A stretch of DNA of 64,000 nucleotides from a virus. Location: positions 6,029 through 70,028 of the IMG/VR virus record IMGVR_UViG_3300025646_000032, one strand, 5' to 3'. Numbering within the stretch: the first letter of the stretch is position 1; each line of letters begins with the position of its first letter. Of this stretch, positions 39,192-44,700 are shown in pieces. The notes below the pieces were generated by a model. It had not been told where the DNA came from and did no database searches. It was given only the letters and a program-made list of their open reading frames with translations. The position numbers and the translations under genes are program-made.

Positions 39192-40109
39192 TTAGTCGTC
39201 GGATGCAAGTTTGGCAAAGTAGGATAGTGTATCCTCTTCGTCGTCACTCTCCACAACAGGTGTTACAGGTGCCTTAGGGGCAGTAGTAACAGACTTTAGA
39301 AAAGCCTCATCTTCTGCAGCGTCTTTGGCAGATACTGCTTCTGCTGTACCTACATTAGAACTGCTAGCACCAAGTACCATATTGAGCTTAGACTTTAACT
39401 CGTCATAAGACTTAAAGTTCTTAGGATCAATTAGTTCTTGTAATGAGTGCTGTTGATTCCAAATAGCCTCAATAGCTTCATCGGTATCAGCAACAGGTGA
39501 TGGTGCTTCAAACTCTGACTTGTCATAGTTACGATAACCTTCCACTTGACGAATCTTAATCTTAAAGTTTGCACCTTCCCAAAAATCAAATGGGTTGATT
39601 GGATTCTCATCTTCAAATGTAGGGTTCATCATATCATTGAGCTTGTCAAAGATCTTTTTACCGTACTTGTAAAGGAAAACTTTTCCTTCATTAGCAGGGT
39701 TACCTGGATCACTTACAACCAAGATGTTTGAGAAGTAAGCAAGTCGACGCTTCTGTTTACGAGCAATCTCCTTGTTAGCCTCAACACCACTGTTCCAAAG
39801 CTCACTATTGAGTTCGGATACAGGATCACTTTGGTTTAGTGTAGTGAGAGAGTTTTCGATGTACCACTTTCCAGTAGGACCTTGGAATCCGTGATCCCAC
39901 CTACGCACCCAAGGAAATTCCTCTCCTTTAGTTGGGGGTAAGAAACGAACTACGGCAAAACCATTACCGGCTTTGTCTACTGTGGGTTTCCATTCTCGAT
40001 CATCGCCCTGCGATTGCTGGACGGGGTTAGAAATCTTCTCAACCTCTTTCATTAGCTTATCAAAGCCGCCGCGAGATTTACGAAGATCAGATAGTGAATT
40101 AAACGACAT
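39192..40109 (-). CDS. gp32: Single-stranded DNA-binding protein gp32
   Basis: DDREWKP..DKAGNG.AV.RFLP, HGFQGPTGKWYIENSLTT, PFDFWEGANFK, acidic tail. Confidence 0.95.
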   Translation of the reverse strand: MSFNSLSDLRKSRGGFDKLMKEVEKISNPVQQSQGDDREWKPTVDKAGNGFAVVRFLPPTKGEEFPWVRRWDHGFQGPTGKWYIENSLTTLNQSDPVSELNSELWNSGVEANKEIARKQKRRLAYFSNILVVSDPGNPANEGKVFLYKYGKKIFDKLNDMMNPTFEDENPINPFDFWEGANFKIKIRQVEGYRNYDKSEFEAPSPVADTDEAIEAIWNQQHSLQELIDPKNFKSYDELKSKLNMVLGASSSNVGTAEAVSAKDAAEDEAFLKSVTTAPKAPVTPVVESDDEEDTLSYFAKLASDD

Positions 40110-42042: not shown

Positions 42043-42071
42043 ATTATACATTATACAAAAAGATTTGTCAA
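42043..42071 (-). promoter_or_regulatory. Consensus sigma70 promoter
   Basis: TTGACA-17 nt-TATAAT, ending 7 nt before ATG 42035. Confidence 0.75.
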
Positions 42072-42628
42072 TAGTTTTTTGTATAAAATTTGTGTACTCC
42101 GTGATATGCTACTAACTGCATATTACGGTTCCAATAAGGATTAACATAATTGGCATGATACCATAAAGCTCCATTTGTATTGTCTTCTAGTTCACCACTC
42201 ATTGCGTCGTGAGCAATACTAACGAACTCTCTATAACGACTCCAATCTTTAATAACATCGGATTTACCATCGCAGTACCAAGAAAATTGACATTGGTTTC
42301 GTAAAGGAATAACCTTACCGCGTTCTAAACCCCACTTGCTTAAACGTGCCTGGTAAACAACCTCGCATGGTGTGTTAGGATATTTACTAGATTTTGCACG
42401 ATTTAAGACAACATGAGCTATAGCAATTTGTCCCTCTAGGGGCTCTCCACTAGCCTCAAAATAAATGTTTTTAGCAATACAAGACACTTGACGCGGGTCT
42501 TGTACTTCTTGTATTGCTTCGATATTAGGTGCTGCTTCAATAGTTTTTGCACTAACTGGCTCTTCATCTAGAGCATTGCAACCACCTAGGATTAGTATTC
42601 CGCATAACGATAAAAATACATTACGCAT
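42068..42628 (-). CDS. SleB/Hydrolase_2 cell wall hydrolase, possible lipoprotein
   Basis: CIAKNIYFEA.GE, VVLNR, CQFSWYCDG, YHANYV.P.W; N-terminal LGGC lipobox-like. Confidence 0.9.
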   Translation of the reverse strand: MRNVFLSLCGILILGGCNALDEEPVSAKTIEAAPNIEAIQEVQDPRQVSCIAKNIYFEASGEPLEGQIAIAHVVLNRAKSSKYPNTPCEVVYQARLSKWGLERGKVIPLRNQCQFSWYCDGKSDVIKDWSRYREFVSIAHDAMSGELEDNTNGALWYHANYVNPYWNRNMQLVAYHGVHKFYTKNY

Positions 42629-42648
42629 ATTTTTCTCCTTTAATACAA

Positions 42649-42960
42649 GGGCCCGTTTGATAACAAGGTGGAACCCATACCCCGTCTAGCTTAAGCAGCT
42701 AGAGCAAATACCTCATCGTTGGCATTTATTTGTTTTGTTGCTTTCACAGTAGCTTCCGCACTGGTCCTCCACTTTCCTACTTATTACCTGTCGAACCTGT
42801 TCACCCCCATCAGATATGCACTTACCGCAATTTGTTCCAATCAGATGATACCTATCAGTATCGTTTTCTCTTACATTGTTACAAATACACAAATACATAT
42901 CTGGTGGAGGTGGCGGGAATCGCACCCGCGTCCAAGTAACCTTTCAGTCCGTTTCATCGA
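42649..42960 (-). ncRNA. ssrA: Circularly permuted (two-piece) tmRNA; tag (A)ANDEVFALAA
   Basis: Acceptor piece ending GACGCGGGTGCGATTCCCGCCACCTCCACCA (3' end 42902) precedes the coding piece starting GGGGGTGAACAGGTTCGAC (42808); 7-bp acceptor stem with G3.U70; tag frame 42723-42691. Confidence 0.9.
42713..42898 (-). CDS. Bfd-like Cys-rich mini-protein nested in the tmRNA gene
   Basis: MYLCICNNV...GTNCGKC resembles the Bfd MYVCLC..CGKC ends; no Shine-Dalgarno. Confidence 0.45.
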   Translation of the reverse strand: MYLCICNNVRENDTDRYHLIGTNCGKCISDGGEQVRQVISRKVEDQCGSYCESNKTNKCQR

Positions 42961-43038
42961 ACAAGGTATTTATAATAACACCTTTTGTTTAATATTAAAC
43001 AAGGTATTTATAATAACACCTTTTGTTTAATTTGTCAA
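42960..43038 (-). promoter_or_regulatory. Composite tmRNA promoter: TTGACA-17-TATTAT overlapping TATAAATA, in a 34-bp direct repeat
   Basis: Repeat copies at 42960-42993 and 42998-43031, each containing TATAAATA. Confidence 0.7.
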
Positions 43039-43040
43039 GC

Positions 43041-44063
43041 CTAAATTGCTATTTTTTGGCCTTCGTTGTATTCTTGTAATCTTTGCTGATCCACTAAACT
43101 AATAAACTCAGCGCCTGTCATTACTTTTCCATTTACTGTATAACTATCCCAATGTCCATGATTAGGATACAGTTTGTTCATATAAGAAACACTTCTCCAC
43201 ATCTTTCTCATATTACCATCTTTAATGTTGGTTGGACGTGCATGTAATGTAATATTTTGATCCATATACACAACCTGTCCGTCTTGCCAATCATGTTCGT
43301 ATATGTATTCGGGTTTATTTATTTGTTCCCAGAGATGCTCTTTAAATTTTAAACTGTCATACTCTGTCATACCCTCGAAGTGAGAAAACAACGAGCCAGG
43401 AAAATGAATACCTTTAACACCGGCTGATGTTTCTTGCTGTAACTTACAAGACATACCGTCTATTGGAACCTGATTGTAACGAACTAATGCTTTTTGTTCG
43501 TCAATTAAATCTCCAGTAAAGTTGACTCTATTCCACTTGTAAACACTACGAAGTTCATCTACCATTGTTTTGTCTTCTTGGCTCAGTTTGTCGTAAGCCT
43601 CGGCAGTACATAAGAAACAAGTTTGTGAATTTTCTGAATGTTCTACAGATACTAAACCAATTACTCGCGCGCCGTCATCAACAGCAACCTGATCACTATG
43701 CCAACCCAACGAGCCGTTGGCAAATAAACCTTTTGGGCGTCCTTTCTTACCTAGCTGATAGGTAACAACATTCATGGTGTCCCGATATTCGGGCTCAATC
43801 TCGCTTGAGACGTTGAAGATATCTAGTCGTAAACTGGACCAATGTTTACCCATGTTGCTAAGAGACACTGCTCGATTAACAATAGACTGTGCACCTTCGC
43901 CCCAACTATTTTGGACTTCCCAGGTTCTTTTTTGATTTAATTTTTGTTTAACTAGGACGACTGCTTTGTTTGCTACTAGTTTGCCCAAATCCTCGATGTG
44001 CTCATCAGAGTAAATGTCAAAGTCGTATGCTTCAGTTGCCCCGTTTAAGGATTTCGTTTTCAT
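43041..44063 (-). CDS. TauD/TfdA-family 2OG-Fe(II) dioxygenase
   Basis: WHSD, T.F....AY..L, H.W..G....DQ..TLHAR, R.M.R. Confidence 0.85.
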   Translation of the reverse strand: MKTKSLNGATEAYDFDIYSDEHIEDLGKLVANKAVVLVKQKLNQKRTWEVQNSWGEGAQSIVNRAVSLSNMGKHWSSLRLDIFNVSSEIEPEYRDTMNVVTYQLGKKGRPKGLFANGSLGWHSDQVAVDDGARVIGLVSVEHSENSQTCFLCTAEAYDKLSQEDKTMVDELRSVYKWNRVNFTGDLIDEQKALVRYNQVPIDGMSCKLQQETSAGVKGIHFPGSLFSHFEGMTEYDSLKFKEHLWEQINKPEYIYEHDWQDGQVVYMDQNITLHARPTNIKDGNMRKMWRSVSYMNKLYPNHGHWDSYTVNGKVMTGAEFISLVDQQRLQEYNEGQKIAI

Positions 44064-44700
44064 ATGCGTCCCGTGCTTCAAAAAGTTTTTCTACAAAGTT
44101 ATCTCTCTTTTGTAAAAACACTATGGGCTCTTCTCCTTCAACTGCCATTAAAATAACAGTTTGAGATACGGGTATGCCAGTAAGTTCCTCAAACATAATT
44201 GCGTAAGCGCTACATTGTATGAAGTAGTTCTCGCACTGTGAGGGTGTCTTTCTTCTCTTTGATGTTTTAAAATCAATAACAGATAACTTGCCATTATATT
44301 CTGCGATACAATCAACTTGTCCTGCAAGTCTTAAATGTTCACTATAGAGCTTTGTCTCCAATGCTCTAATATTATTTATATCGTCTAACAAAGGGCGAAA
44401 CTTACGAAACATTTCTTTGTCAATATAATTTAGATGAGTATCCTCTGTCAACTTATTGTCAAGAATGTCTTCACAAAGTTTGTGAATACGAGTACCACGT
44501 GTCGTGGCTTGTTTAGAAATTTTATCTGCTTCAGCCTCGCCAATACGTTGACGCCAGGCCTGAATAAATGGTTTAGATTTGTGAGATAAAATTGTAGTAA
44601 CAGAAGGCAAATGATCACCGGACGGAGTAACATACCTCCGTCCGTTTTCTGTATTTACTTGTTTGAGTTTAGGTACTTCTACTAGATTATGAATAAACAC
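44032..44700 (-). CDS. PD-(D/E)xK Cas4-like exonuclease of T4-like phages
   Basis: PSVTTIL, RGT.IH, AGQVDCIAEY, IDFKTS, YFIQC.AYA. Confidence 0.85.
   Translation of the reverse strand: MFIHNLVEVPKLKQVNTENGRRYVTPSGDHLPSVTTILSHKSKPFIQAWRQRIGEAEADKISKQATTRGTRIHKLCEDILDNKLTEDTHLNYIDKEMFRKFRPLLDDINNIRALETKLYSEHLRLAGQVDCIAEYNGKLSVIDFKTSKRRKTPSQCENYFIQCSAYAIMFEELTGIPVSQTVILMAVEGEEPIVFLQKRDNFVEKLFEARDAYENEILKRGN

Follow-up and report, generated by a model that had tools for sequence, protein, structure and literature searches.

Homing-endonuclease ORFs sit in group I introns of tRNA, rRNA, and tmRNA genes, and they resemble the locus described here in being protein genes nested in a segment that is removed from a stable-RNA precursor. 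In another type of gene, represented by arfA and by brfA of Bacillus subtilis, a rescue factor is encoded by a non-stop mRNA and repressed by trans-translation. For arfA, RNase III cuts a hairpin of the gene itself and leaves a non-stop message, the product of which is SsrA-tagged and repressed by trans-translation, as described in two reports (PMC3989581; PMC10107115).

The closest described tmRNA gene is that of the OM43 phage Melnitz, for which the passages on tmRNA, ssrA, and the riboswitch describe the same arrangement of acceptor piece, spacer, and coding piece as found here, an early-type promoter, a T4-like marine phage, and a tag with an LAA ending. They also describe a glutamine riboswitch as an accessory element of ssrA, and an ORF in the tmRNA spacer goes unmentioned in them (PMC9004378). 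The tmRNA database paper mentions tmRNA introns, names as spacer contents a tRNA-Ala gene and a repetitive element only, and has neither "ORF" nor "open reading" in its text (PMC11915505). A literature search turned up neither a tmRNA spacer that carries a protein gene nor a mini-Bfd from a phage. The nearest described protein is Bfd (PF04324; P. aeruginosa 4E6K, 6E6Q, 6E6R, and 6E6S), which is likewise small and stand-alone and begins at Met1 with MY-C-x-C, and whose residues M1, Y2, and L5 bind bacterioferritin (Bfr), according to the relevant part of a published account (PMC12261321).

The window analyzed here, that is, the whole stretch of 64,000 nucleotides of viral DNA, carries a two-piece tmRNA gene in which the accessory element, compared with that in the Melnitz passages, appears to be a protein-coding gene filling the spacer. 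This mini-ORF differs from intron ORFs in that it encodes no mobility enzyme and borrows its stop codon and end stem from the host RNA gene; moreover, the spacer of a permuted tmRNA is no intron because the two pieces are never rejoined. Spacers of two-piece tmRNAs have been treated as discarded RNA, whereas in this gene no part is better conserved than the spacer, which seems to encode a protein. One transcript would be forced to serve as messenger and stable-RNA precursor at once, its start and stop signals being common to it and the RNA gene, which makes the locus a compact case of overlapping RNA and protein information. The best overall explanation, which we consider fairly likely, is a mini-Bfd gene nested in the spacer of a dual-use transcript, with bacterioferritin as the target of its product.

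Anatomy of the two-piece tmRNA gene

Positions 42641-42994 on the minus strand of the window were identified as a permuted two-piece tmRNA gene by both Rfam RF04321 and ARAGORN. RF04321 scores 121.8 bits against a cut-off of 47 (model positions 1-213, alignment beginning at 42963), and RF01850 scores 98.4 bits against a cut-off of 84 (model positions 1-331). The tag called by ARAGORN, ANDEVFALAA*, has a hydrophobic ending of the LAA type. In the acceptor stem, GGGGGTG, with which the coding piece opens at 42808, pairs with CACCTCC, the third pair being G-T, and is completed on the other strand by an A and the CCA at 42904-42902. The promoter has 11 of 12 matches, is the sole promoter-like site within 42500-43150, and is kept in loci L001 and L004. 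The phage context of the gene is T4-like and marine. All features are listed in Table 1.

Table 1. Features of the tmRNA locus and of the mini-ORF, in window coordinates
Feature	Positions	Strand	Basis or remark
Sigma-70-type promoter of the tmRNA/mini-ORF transcript, early-type	43010..43038	-	TTGACA, 17 nt, TATTAT, TG-extended
tmRNA acceptor piece (5' helix strand, T-arm, acceptor 3' strand, discriminator A, CCA)	42902..42963	-	RF04321, ARAGORN
Intervening segment (spacer), 93 nt, between CCA and G1	42809..42901	-	Removed in tmRNA maturation
Predicted mini-Bfd core CDS, 30 codons, Cys4/Cys6/Cys24/Cys27	42809..42898	-	RNase P site falls directly after the last codon
5' arm of basal spacer stem, holds the ATG	42890..42901	-	MFE fold; covaries with 3' arm in L056, L171, L112
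3' arm of basal spacer stem	42813..42824	-	Overlaps the second pair of Cys codons (K-C-I)
tmRNA coding piece (5' acceptor strand GGGGGTG, tag frame, 3' hairpin)	42641..42808	-	RF01850, RF04321
Read-through tail of the mini-ORF in the mature coding piece, 31 codons + TGA	42713..42808	-	Unconserved as protein between lineages
Tag reading frame, ANDEVFALAA + stop	42691..42723	-	ARAGORN, coding part 272-304 of the gene starting at 42994

The mini-ORF in the spacer was first noticed in a first-pass annotation made from the sequence alone, and this observation is confirmed on the minus strand, while the reading given to it there is, taken as a whole, partly supported. The ATG at 42898-42896 lies three nucleotides (G-A-T) past the CCA, and all four Cys of the pattern CxC-x17-CxxC fall inside the 93-nt spacer. 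The frame, MYLCICNNVRENDTDRYHLIGTNCGKCISD, has zero stops in the spacer and ends after 61 aa at the TGA 42715-42713, within the tag frame and, as had been claimed, in another frame than the tag. The pairing of the spacer ends that had been proposed to bury the ATG is also present in the MFE fold, as a hairpin stem of 11-13 bp (MFE -24.7 kcal/mol, z -3.69). The duplex of the two arms is at -11.8 to -13.7 kcal/mol in embedded sequences versus mostly -1 to -9 in free-standing ones.

The mini-ORF comes without its own promoter, Shine-Dalgarno sequence, or stop codon; a Shine-Dalgarno sequence before the ATG was found in none of the five embedded sequences checked. Its read-through tails differ by lineage (GGEQVRQV..., GGVLDSTG..., GGDSGIDL...) and track the tmRNA sequence.

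Conservation and distribution of the mini-ORF

The first-pass annotation had named loss of the frame or of the Cys pattern from homologous spacers as the case against its reading. Such losses were looked for, and all seven embedded lineages examined keep both the frame and the four Cys, with a stop-free spacer in which the last codon ends exactly at G1 and a stop codon that falls within a mature tmRNA piece. The synonymous-biased change that had been suggested as a check is seen as well: dN/dS is 0.02-0.21 among five short-type embedded sequences, synonymous sites are near saturation, and the synonymous excess in three pairs has Fisher p values of 1.3e-9, 1.3e-4, and 3.2e-4. The first of these pairs, the window sequence (WIN) and L056, has a pS of 0.90 and a pN of 0.07, with 13 synonymous and 5 non-synonymous differences. 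Across 37 short-type sequences, the variable columns at codon positions 1, 2, and 3 number 17, 12, and 27 of 28, respectively.

WIN and L056 are 78% identical in the spacer, 60% in the acceptor piece, and 51% in the coding piece; in L008 and L009, a pair without the ORF, identity is 100 and 98% over the mature pieces and just 43% over the spacer. The tmRNA backbone of WIN is nearest to these ORF-less loci L008 and L009 (86 and 63%), and that of L056 is nearest to L113, a locus with an upstream ORF (75 and 71%), yet the 93-nt ORF spacer is common to WIN and L056. Conserved RNA structure was considered as the cause of the spacer conservation and rejected because the inner fold is unconserved, differing between WIN and L004. 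Gene conversion from a second copy was also rejected, as the 100%-complete 162-kb genome G001 contains only the embedded copy and no paralogue. A lone open frame of 31 codons would be unremarkable, given that open frames also occur in several spacers without the ORF; it is by the comparative evidence, not by the open frame alone, that the mini-ORF sequence rises above chance. We regard it as very probable that the mini-ORF is a real, translated gene.

Scans gave 84 relatives in viral contigs, of which 80 were kept, as well as 65 loci, and 167 clusters were found at E<=1e-3 among 1.84 billion representatives. The family, of about 30 residues and of Bfd type, is widespread in aquatic T4-like phages. 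It falls into two subfamilies by the number of residues between the Cys pairs, 17 (short) and 21 (long), with short spacers in 124 of the 156 representative clusters that have the Cys pattern, and both subfamilies occur embedded. Among 74 unique viral core sequences, six (plus the window) are embedded in a tmRNA spacer and seven abut the acceptor piece on its 5' side with the stop codon inside that piece; the other 61 neither abut nor sit within a tmRNA, one of them (L174) lying 391 nt upstream of one, and 60 loci being free of any tmRNA. Free-standing genes with their own stop codon and no tmRNA in the locus make up 59 of the 74. In the five upstream-type lineages checked with Rfam, the stop codon always lies 4-66 nt inside the acceptor-piece model. 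In L114, L117, and L119 this stop is a TGA within the first ten acceptor-model positions, and the acceptor piece of the window has a TGA at the same place. In P0125, a lineage known from protein only, the ATG overlaps the last A of the CCA. For clusters known from protein only, tmRNA signatures, present in roughly 20 of them, come from a regular expression on the protein strings alone; P0082 is probably false and P0096 was added by eye.

Free-standing members neighbor gp32, DNA polymerase B, or a radical SAM gene, many have Lys-rich tails, one group is fused in frame to the N-terminus of the UvsW helicase, and dozens of ordinary genes that differ at the nucleotide level yield the same peptide. 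In the 91%-complete phage genome G002, the mini-Bfd gene and the tmRNA are 58 kb apart and the tmRNA spacer is non-coding. When permuted phage tmRNAs were sampled regardless of the ORF, most were without it: it was present in 0 of 12, and in three of seven in another sample. A metagenome scan with a 32-nt T-arm/acceptor string gave 21 loci with the ORF in one, L034 (= L001); 15 of these spacers were parsed, 14 being without the ORF, and six were unparsed. The family is recurrently linked, physically, to phage tmRNA genes. It is also not tied to them, most relatives being free-standing, and the nesting may carry no functional meaning because most family members have no tmRNA nearby. A general habit of trailing tRNA genes was rejected, since ARAGORN found a tRNA in only one of 60 tmRNA-free loci, as was a common genomic site of the gene in G001 and G002, whose flanks have just one weakly similar ORF in common.

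In 50,697 cultured-phage records, tblastn with the 30-mer, the 61-mer, and a 52-aa free-standing member gave no match save a chance one at E=9, and blastn with the tmRNA gave three short T-arm matches only. PHROGs returned nothing below E 0.1 for 10 members. A pattern scan of 185,579 species genomes gave 59 matches, of which only a Croceicoccus relative of canonical length was confirmed; because the pattern was narrow, this speaks only weakly for absence from cells. For annotation practice, ORFs inside tmRNA calls should no longer be masked.

Kinship with Bfd and a candidate partner

The comparison with Bfd made in the first-pass annotation fared differently by method. Its statements that Bfd starts with MYVCLC, contains CGKC, and has a longer spacer are borne out by the PDB Bfd chains, and the likeness itself is upheld by the family profile: against the PDB (177,635 sequences), its four best matches are Bfd chains (E 1.4e-4 to 3.9e-4), with profile positions 1-28 aligned to Bfd residues 1-42 and Cys 4, Cys 6, and the CGKC pair matched. 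The suggested HMM check against Fer2_BFD (PF04324) stayed below threshold, with 13.5 bits for the 30-mer and 9.3 for the 61-mer against a gathering cut-off of 26. Every member tested is below that cut-off (9.3 to 18.7 bits). Among nine mini-proteins, L114 scores best (18.7 bits) and L113, L117, and L120 have no Fer2_BFD match; L113 and L117, two of the ten sequences in that search, gave no match of any kind.

Bfd and the mini-protein share an ending in G-T-x-CGKC, their four cluster-ligand Cys align, and the Bfd anchors M1, Y2, and L5 correspond to M1, Y2, and I5 in the mini-protein, the residues present in the window. In the family alignment, M1 is invariant, position 2 is mostly Y, with I and F as the alternatives, and at least 90% have I at position 5. 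The two differ in that Bfd has 31 residues between the Cys pairs, compared with 17 here (14 fewer) and 21 in the long subfamily, and in that the mini-protein is below the Pfam cut-off and is found in viral contigs and metagenomes only. The Cys-spacer lengths grade from 17 through 21 to about 31 in canonical Bfd relatives. Judged by its sequence, the mini-protein is a shortened Bfd relative. Binding of a [2Fe-2S] cluster is uncertain because the shortened Cys spacer lacks the cluster-shielding helix hairpin.

The AF2 model of the 30-mer consists of one short helix (pLDDT 82.3) and gave no match in Foldseek because it is too small; with a long-type model, the top three of four Foldseek matches are Bfd chains (E 0.4-0.8, TM 0.46-0.50). 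In a complex model built from the family alignment and two BFR_ECOLI chains, the ipSAE is 0.75 versus 0.01 for the best control, the mark for this score being one that 58 of 80 solved complexes reach, as do 2 of 110 mismatched pairs. Three runs share at least 94% of contacts, the pLDDT of the partner is at least 79, and the modeled residues 1, 2, and 5 contact Bfr at 67-74 and 74-81, in the canonical Bfd site, which lies at the dimer interface above the heme. The score may, however, reflect the model's memory of the solved Bfr-Bfd complex (4E6K), and the E. coli Bfr is a stand-in from which the host Bfr may differ. Docking of the mini-protein on bacterioferritin, as predicted by this model, is accordingly put forward only tentatively, at a little short of even chances. 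In this family, phages may have a minimal module for metal binding that lets them draw on the iron stores of the host or block them.

Use of the transcript and competing explanations

We propose that the mini-ORF is transcribed from the early-type promoter of the tmRNA. With a stop codon 93 nt inside the mature coding piece, the complete message would be present on the uncut precursor only, and because of this, translation would most likely be co-transcriptional, probably beginning before the spacer and acceptor stems form and RNase P cuts at G1; the same RNA would later mature into tmRNA. The four Cys would most likely hold a metal centre, either [2Fe-2S] or a single metal ion, and Met1, Tyr2, and Ile5 would most likely dock on the host bacterioferritin at the Bfd site, where docking might alter iron release to the benefit of the phage. 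The dual-use locus posited in the first-pass annotation holds by anatomy, the transcript being dual-use in this sense because the frame ends within the mature coding piece; that the precursor acts as messenger for the mini-Bfd seems to us slightly the better bet. The further suggestions of that annotation, that translation might compete with maturation, that the excised piece might be a non-stop mRNA tagged by its own tmRNA, and that the locus might tie ribosome rescue to iron or redox state, stand as conjecture. Such an arrangement suggests a possible new form of protein control via RNA maturation or trans-translation.

The dual-use reading has to be weighed against one in which the mini-ORF is a real, translated phage gene that rides as a passenger, its place in the tmRNA reflecting genome compaction and having no coupling to trans-translation, and the spacer being a permissive, strongly transcribed slot with room for about 90 nt of coding sequence. 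The 59 of 74 unique sequences that are free-standing without a tmRNA in the locus, the 58-kb separation and non-coding spacer in G002, and the lack of the ORF in most permuted phage tmRNAs sampled regardless of it make this a serious possibility, if one somewhat short of probable. It accounts less well for the precise linkage that recurs on different tmRNA backbones (WIN versus L056), for the embedded members of both the 17- and 21-residue subfamilies, and for the 13 of 74 unique sequences that touch a tmRNA, when just 2.3% of phage genomes carry one, as given in the Melnitz report (PMC9004378). A tighter coupling than that of the dual-use reading can also be envisaged, in which tmRNA maturation cuts the mini-ORF from its stop, by RNase P at G1 where the ORF is embedded or by 5' processing of the acceptor piece where the ORF lies upstream, and the peptide of the resulting non-stop message is tagged by tmRNA and degraded. 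Each precursor would then yield one tmRNA and one non-stop message, and the peptide would accumulate once trans-translation capacity is exceeded. The locus would resemble arfA in that RNA processing parts a short ORF from its stop and the product would be a tmRNA substrate (PMC3989581); it would differ in that the cut would be tmRNA maturation itself instead of RNase III cleavage of the gene's own hairpin, and in that the protein is Bfd-like and not a rescue factor. Besides this documented precedent, the stop-free spacers ending at G1 in all seven embedded lineages, the stops inside the acceptor-piece model in all five upstream lineages checked, and the TGA of L114, L117, and L119 at the place of the window's TGA would fit such gating. 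The shared frame at G1, however, may be mere inheritance, and the mini-protein needs no gating because free-standing members have normal stop codons. In bacterial precursors that encode the CCA, 3' maturation usually starts with an endonucleolytic cut downstream of it, and here that cut would land inside the AU-rich mini-ORF; because of this and of the overlap of ATG and CCA in P0125, translation of the excised fragment is unlikely, and we hold gating as a whole to be rather improbable. If it were true, an ArfA-style sensor in the tmRNA gene would couple ribosome rescue to host iron mobilization in infection.

As regards the protein, the four Cys might instead bind Zn, or Fe in the manner of rubredoxin, in a zinc ribbon that acts as a nucleic-acid- or ribosome-binding knuckle and not as a bacterioferritin ferredoxin. 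For the 30-mer, zinc_ribbon_6 has an E of 0.005 compared with 0.093 for Fer2_BFD, zf-ChsH2 and DUF35 match weakly, the Lys-rich tails and the UvsW fusion would suit such a role, and the shortened Cys spacer drops most of the Bfd helix hairpin. Yet the zinc_ribbon_6, zf-ChsH2, and DUF35 matches are all under their cut-offs, whereas the best PDB matches are Bfd chains aligned end to end, the Bfr anchor residues are conserved, and the predicted Bfr complex passes its controls, so that a zinc ribbon is a minority view that we consider unlikely. Far less credible is an accidental, untranslated four-Cys frame in a spacer that serves as a processing hairpin. L011 and L031 have spacers with all three frames open, and the missing Shine-Dalgarno sequence, the paired ATG, and the sub-threshold Pfam matches could be cited for it; it is already contradicted by selection (dN/dS 0.02-0.2 with synonymous sites near saturation), by a spacer better conserved than the mature tmRNA, by the recurrence of the peptide in dozens of ordinary genes with different nucleotides, and by the single copy in the complete genome G001.

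RNA data were taken from four of 24 runs, all as Logan contigs, in which RNA ends, processing, and translation are not readable and to which DNA in the libraries may have contributed. Contigs of runs X1 and X3 cover 42400-42989 without differences, and a 333-nt contig of run X4 (42642-42974, depth 4.4) matches the whole precursor including the spacer; no joints were present in the contigs of the RNA runs. Contig ends at 42989 and 42960-43027 coincide with a 38-nt tandem duplication.

The spacer-encoded frame and its conservation

The tmRNA gene of the window covers the full length of two Rfam models (RF04321, 121.8 bits, cut-off 47; RF01850, 98.4 bits, cut-off 84) and is of the permuted type, in which an acceptor piece is followed by an excised spacer and a coding piece that holds the tag. 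Its spacer encodes the reading frame MYLCICNNVRENDTDRYHLIGTNCGKCISD, a 30-codon, four-Cys (CxC-x17-CxxC) mini-ORF that is stop-free within the spacer and terminates inside the tag frame, yet out of frame with the tag, and the predicted fold pairs the spacer ends over 11-13 bp, taking in the ATG. The first-pass annotation had read each of these elements correctly (CCA, 93-nt spacer, ATG, four-Cys frame, paired ends, and stop in the tag region). Because the start abuts the CCA and the stop falls within the mature coding piece, only the unprocessed transcript holds a complete message; a single promoter and a single transcript serve both tmRNA and mini-ORF. This anatomy bears out one part of the earlier interpretation, the dual-use transcript, whereas the competition of translation with maturation, the tagging of a non-stop product, and the link to iron that it also proposed are putative (Table).

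Table. Features of the tmRNA locus and of related loci (L-numbers, related viral loci)
Feature	Position	Strand	Basis or remark
gp32	39192-40109		window annotation
Cell-wall hydrolase	42068-42628		window annotation
Permuted tmRNA	42600-42994	-	ARAGORN; tag ANDEVFALAA
Mini-ORF stop (TGA)	42715-42713	-	
G1 of GGGGGTG (coding piece)	42808	-	sequence read
Spacer, 93 nt	42901-42809	-	between CCA and G1
Mini-ORF ATG	42898	-	
CCA of acceptor piece	42904-42902	-	sequence read
38-nt tandem duplication	42956-43031	-	between promoter and acceptor piece
Near-consensus promoter	43038-43010	-	promoter scan; TTGACA, 17 nt, TATTAT
TauD-family dioxygenase	43041-44081		window annotation
Upstream-type long-type genes	L113:2973-3134, L114:3001-3183, L117:3001-3162, L119:3001-3159, L124:1284-1448, L166:1501-1662		
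UvsW fusions	L057:3001-4590, L065:1230-2825; also L066-69, L072, L176-180		
C-terminal-extension sub-group	L120-L127, L132-L139, L164, L113, L166		
Free-standing mini-Bfd	L089:3001-3201		record G002
Spacer of other permuted tmRNA, 88 nt	L032:776-863		T-arm-like motif

An open frame by itself is not beyond chance, as ORF-less phage tmRNA spacers have open frames too. Embedded relatives (L001-3 with L034, 99% neighbours; L004; L052-55; L056; L171; and L112, a long-type member) make up seven lineages together with the window, and in all of them the reading frame and its four Cys are retained, as expected of homologous spacers. The ATG lies 3 nt 3' of the CCA (7 nt in L112), and the spacer lacks a stop and has a codon boundary exactly at G1 in 7/7 lineages. 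Substitutions are overwhelmingly synonymous, with dN/dS of 0.02-0.21 among five short-type embedded sequences and, between the window and L056, pS of 0.90 and pN of 0.07 (Fisher p 1.3e-9). Identity between these two is 78% over the spacer, against 60% for the acceptor piece and 51% for the coding piece; the mature pieces of the ORF-less pair L008 and L009 are 100% and 98% identical and their spacer only 43%. The ORF-bearing spacer is better conserved than the RNA from which it is excised. The inner spacer fold differs between the window and L004, and the basal stem alone is maintained, by covarying changes that are either silent in the protein or conservative. By sequence comparison, the evidence for more than chance is decisive, and the mini-ORF is a real gene, related to bacterioferritin-associated ferredoxin (Bfd). 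Genome G001 (162 kb, CheckV-complete) holds no second mini-Bfd copy from which gene conversion could maintain the spacer sequence.

Two-piece phage tmRNAs have already been published (Melnitz, PMC9004378). The 2025 tmRNA database paper names two unusual kinds of spacer content, a tRNA gene and a repeat element, and makes no mention of ORFs (PMC11915505), and a literature search limited to the articles themselves turned up neither this mini-Bfd family nor any protein gene lying within a tmRNA spacer.

Relationship to bacterioferritin-associated ferredoxin

The four best matches of the family profile in the PDB are Pseudomonas aeruginosa Bfd chains (E 1.4e-4 to 3.9e-4). The alignments begin at Met1, match each of the four cluster ligands, and leave a 14-residue insertion in Bfd relative to the family, which confirms the suspected kinship; the anticipated Fer2_BFD match was found as well, but only below the Pfam cut-off. 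No match was obtained in PHROGs with family members. AF2 models reach moderate confidence (pLDDT 82.3 for the 30-mer and 73.9 for a 53-aa long-type member), and the first three of four Foldseek matches of the long-type model are Bfd structures, with weak E values. M1, Y2, and L5 of Bfd anchor on bacterioferritin, Bfr (PMC12261321); in the family alignment, M1 is invariant, Y2 the majority residue, and I5 nearly invariant. When the family alignment was modelled in complex with two E. coli Bfr chains as a stand-in, the ipSAE was 0.75 (best control 0.01), a mark attained by 58/80 solved complexes and 2/110 mismatched pairs; this pass may come from the predictor's memory of the solved complex. The runs share at least 94% of contacts with a partner pLDDT of at least 79, and the model places residues 1, 2, and 5 against Bfr 67-74 and 74-81, the published Bfd site; what the model shows is predicted likeness to Bfd, not binding. 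Because the Fer2_BFD match is sub-threshold and PDB matches, anchors, and modelled likeness all point to Bfd, we regard the mini-protein as a shortened Bfd relative rather than a Pfam Fer2_BFD member, and one that probably works like Bfd. The best-supported hypothesis for its role, to which we give just short of an even chance, is that putative docking on bacterioferritin alters iron release, the main rival being a Zn-knuckle role in place of such docking.

Used as query in a word-indexed search, the 61-aa ORF recovered two more tmRNA-embedded ORFs and seven proteins of 36-101 aa that share its 30-residue core but have unrelated tails; JGI labels one of these proteins bacterioferritin-associated ferredoxin. 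IMG/VR was scanned with back-translated patterns, which yielded 84 relatives (80 loci retained) and 65 loci, together 74 unique core nucleotide sequences, and HMMER run in full against 1.84 billion representatives gave 167 clusters at E<=1e-3. Two subfamilies have 17 (short-type) or 21 (long-type) residues separating the Cys pairs; matches grade toward the canonical Bfd spacing of about 31, with at most 23 residues in 124 of the 156 representatives that have the Cys pattern.

In some members, the core continues in frame, uninterrupted by a stop, into the N-terminus of a UvsW-type helicase (UvsW_N, ResIII, Helicase_C), whose native start may be an internal Met just past the core. In the free-standing L089, a G+C-rich hairpin immediately 3' of the core looks like the terminator of a convergent gp32 gene on the opposite strand, and the frame goes on for 38 more codons through it. 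In a long-type sub-group, the Cys4 core is extended at its C-terminal side by a conserved stretch, DGxR-V/M-T/S-Y-L/I-T-N, which AF2 models at low confidence (pLDDT 45-62 past residue 30).

Association with tmRNA genes and possible expression

Besides the window, the mini-ORF is spacer-embedded in 6 of the 74 unique viral sequences, immediately 5' of the acceptor piece in 7, and 391 nt upstream of a tmRNA in one; the remaining 60 loci contain no tmRNA, and only one a tRNA. Rfam alignments were used to check five lineages of the upstream type (L113, L114, L117, L119, and L124). A Shine-Dalgarno sequence precedes the ORF in all except L124, and L113 has a promoter-like TTGACA-17-TATAAT just 5' of it (read by eye). 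Their stops lie 4-66 nt into the acceptor-piece model; that of L114, L117, and L119 is a TGA in the first ten model positions, the same place as a TGA in the window's acceptor piece, and the L124 frame crosses the entire T-arm, past the CCA. The long-type gene of L166 likewise sits immediately 5' of a permuted tmRNA and terminates within its acceptor piece. Protein sequences suggest about 13 further representative clusters that end in the translated tmRNA 5' end or begin with a translated T-arm, and 7 more with the upstream signature. The stop codon is inside the tmRNA in 12/12 lineages checked. The window's tmRNA backbone is nearest to those of ORF-less L008 and L009, and that of L056 to upstream-ORF locus L113; the linkage is not simple inheritance, because these differing backbones carry a common 93-nt ORF spacer.

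We propose that ribosomes would engage the A-rich, SD-less start during transcription, before the stem's 3' arm is synthesized about 75 nt later, yielding a mini-protein (61 aa here) that ends in an arbitrary tail or, where RNase P cuts first, a truncated product, and that the same RNA would afterwards mature to tmRNA. We lean slightly toward this reading of the precursor as a messenger that is loaded, translated, and then matured. It is less probable, but still a serious contender, that nesting is mere compaction without functional coupling to tmRNA; most family members are ordinary free-standing genes near a gp32, DNA polymerase, or radical SAM gene or are fused to UvsW, genome G002 has its mini-Bfd gene 58 kb away from a tmRNA with a non-coding spacer, and most phage permuted tmRNAs, sampled irrespective of ORF, lack a mini-ORF, all of which counts against an obligatory tmRNA link.

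The product of the rescue-factor gene arfA comes from a non-stop message made by processing and is gated by trans-translation (PMC3989581). Deliberate processing to a non-stop message with similar gating would agree with the stop-inside-tmRNA rule, but appears unlikely here, as free-standing members have normal stops. An endonucleolytic cut 3' of the CCA, which is likely in a tmRNA precursor, also speaks against such gating.

Genome setting of the locus

The source record is a 70-kb uncultured virus with T4-like genes, PhoH also being among those of the window. Immediately upstream of the tmRNA lies a TauD-family Fe(II)/2OG dioxygenase, an iron-dependent phage enzyme that could, by association only, profit from mobilised iron.

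In another phage permuted tmRNA (L032), the spacer has a T-arm-like GGTTCGAATCC motif, a candidate for the kind of nested tRNA-like element reported once (PMC11915505). A regular expression placed GGGGGTG just 5-12 nt past the conserved T-arm/CCA string in L027, L028, L030, and L035, which could be explained by a very short spacer, by another form of the gene, or as an artefact of non-greedy matching.

The 38-nt tandem duplication copies the -10 region and the transcript start, and alignment shows it to be missing in L001 and L004. RNA-run contigs (Logan contigs, which may contain DNA) break at 42989 and 42960-43027 because of this duplication, and one RNA-run contig (X2) has a shorter variant there.
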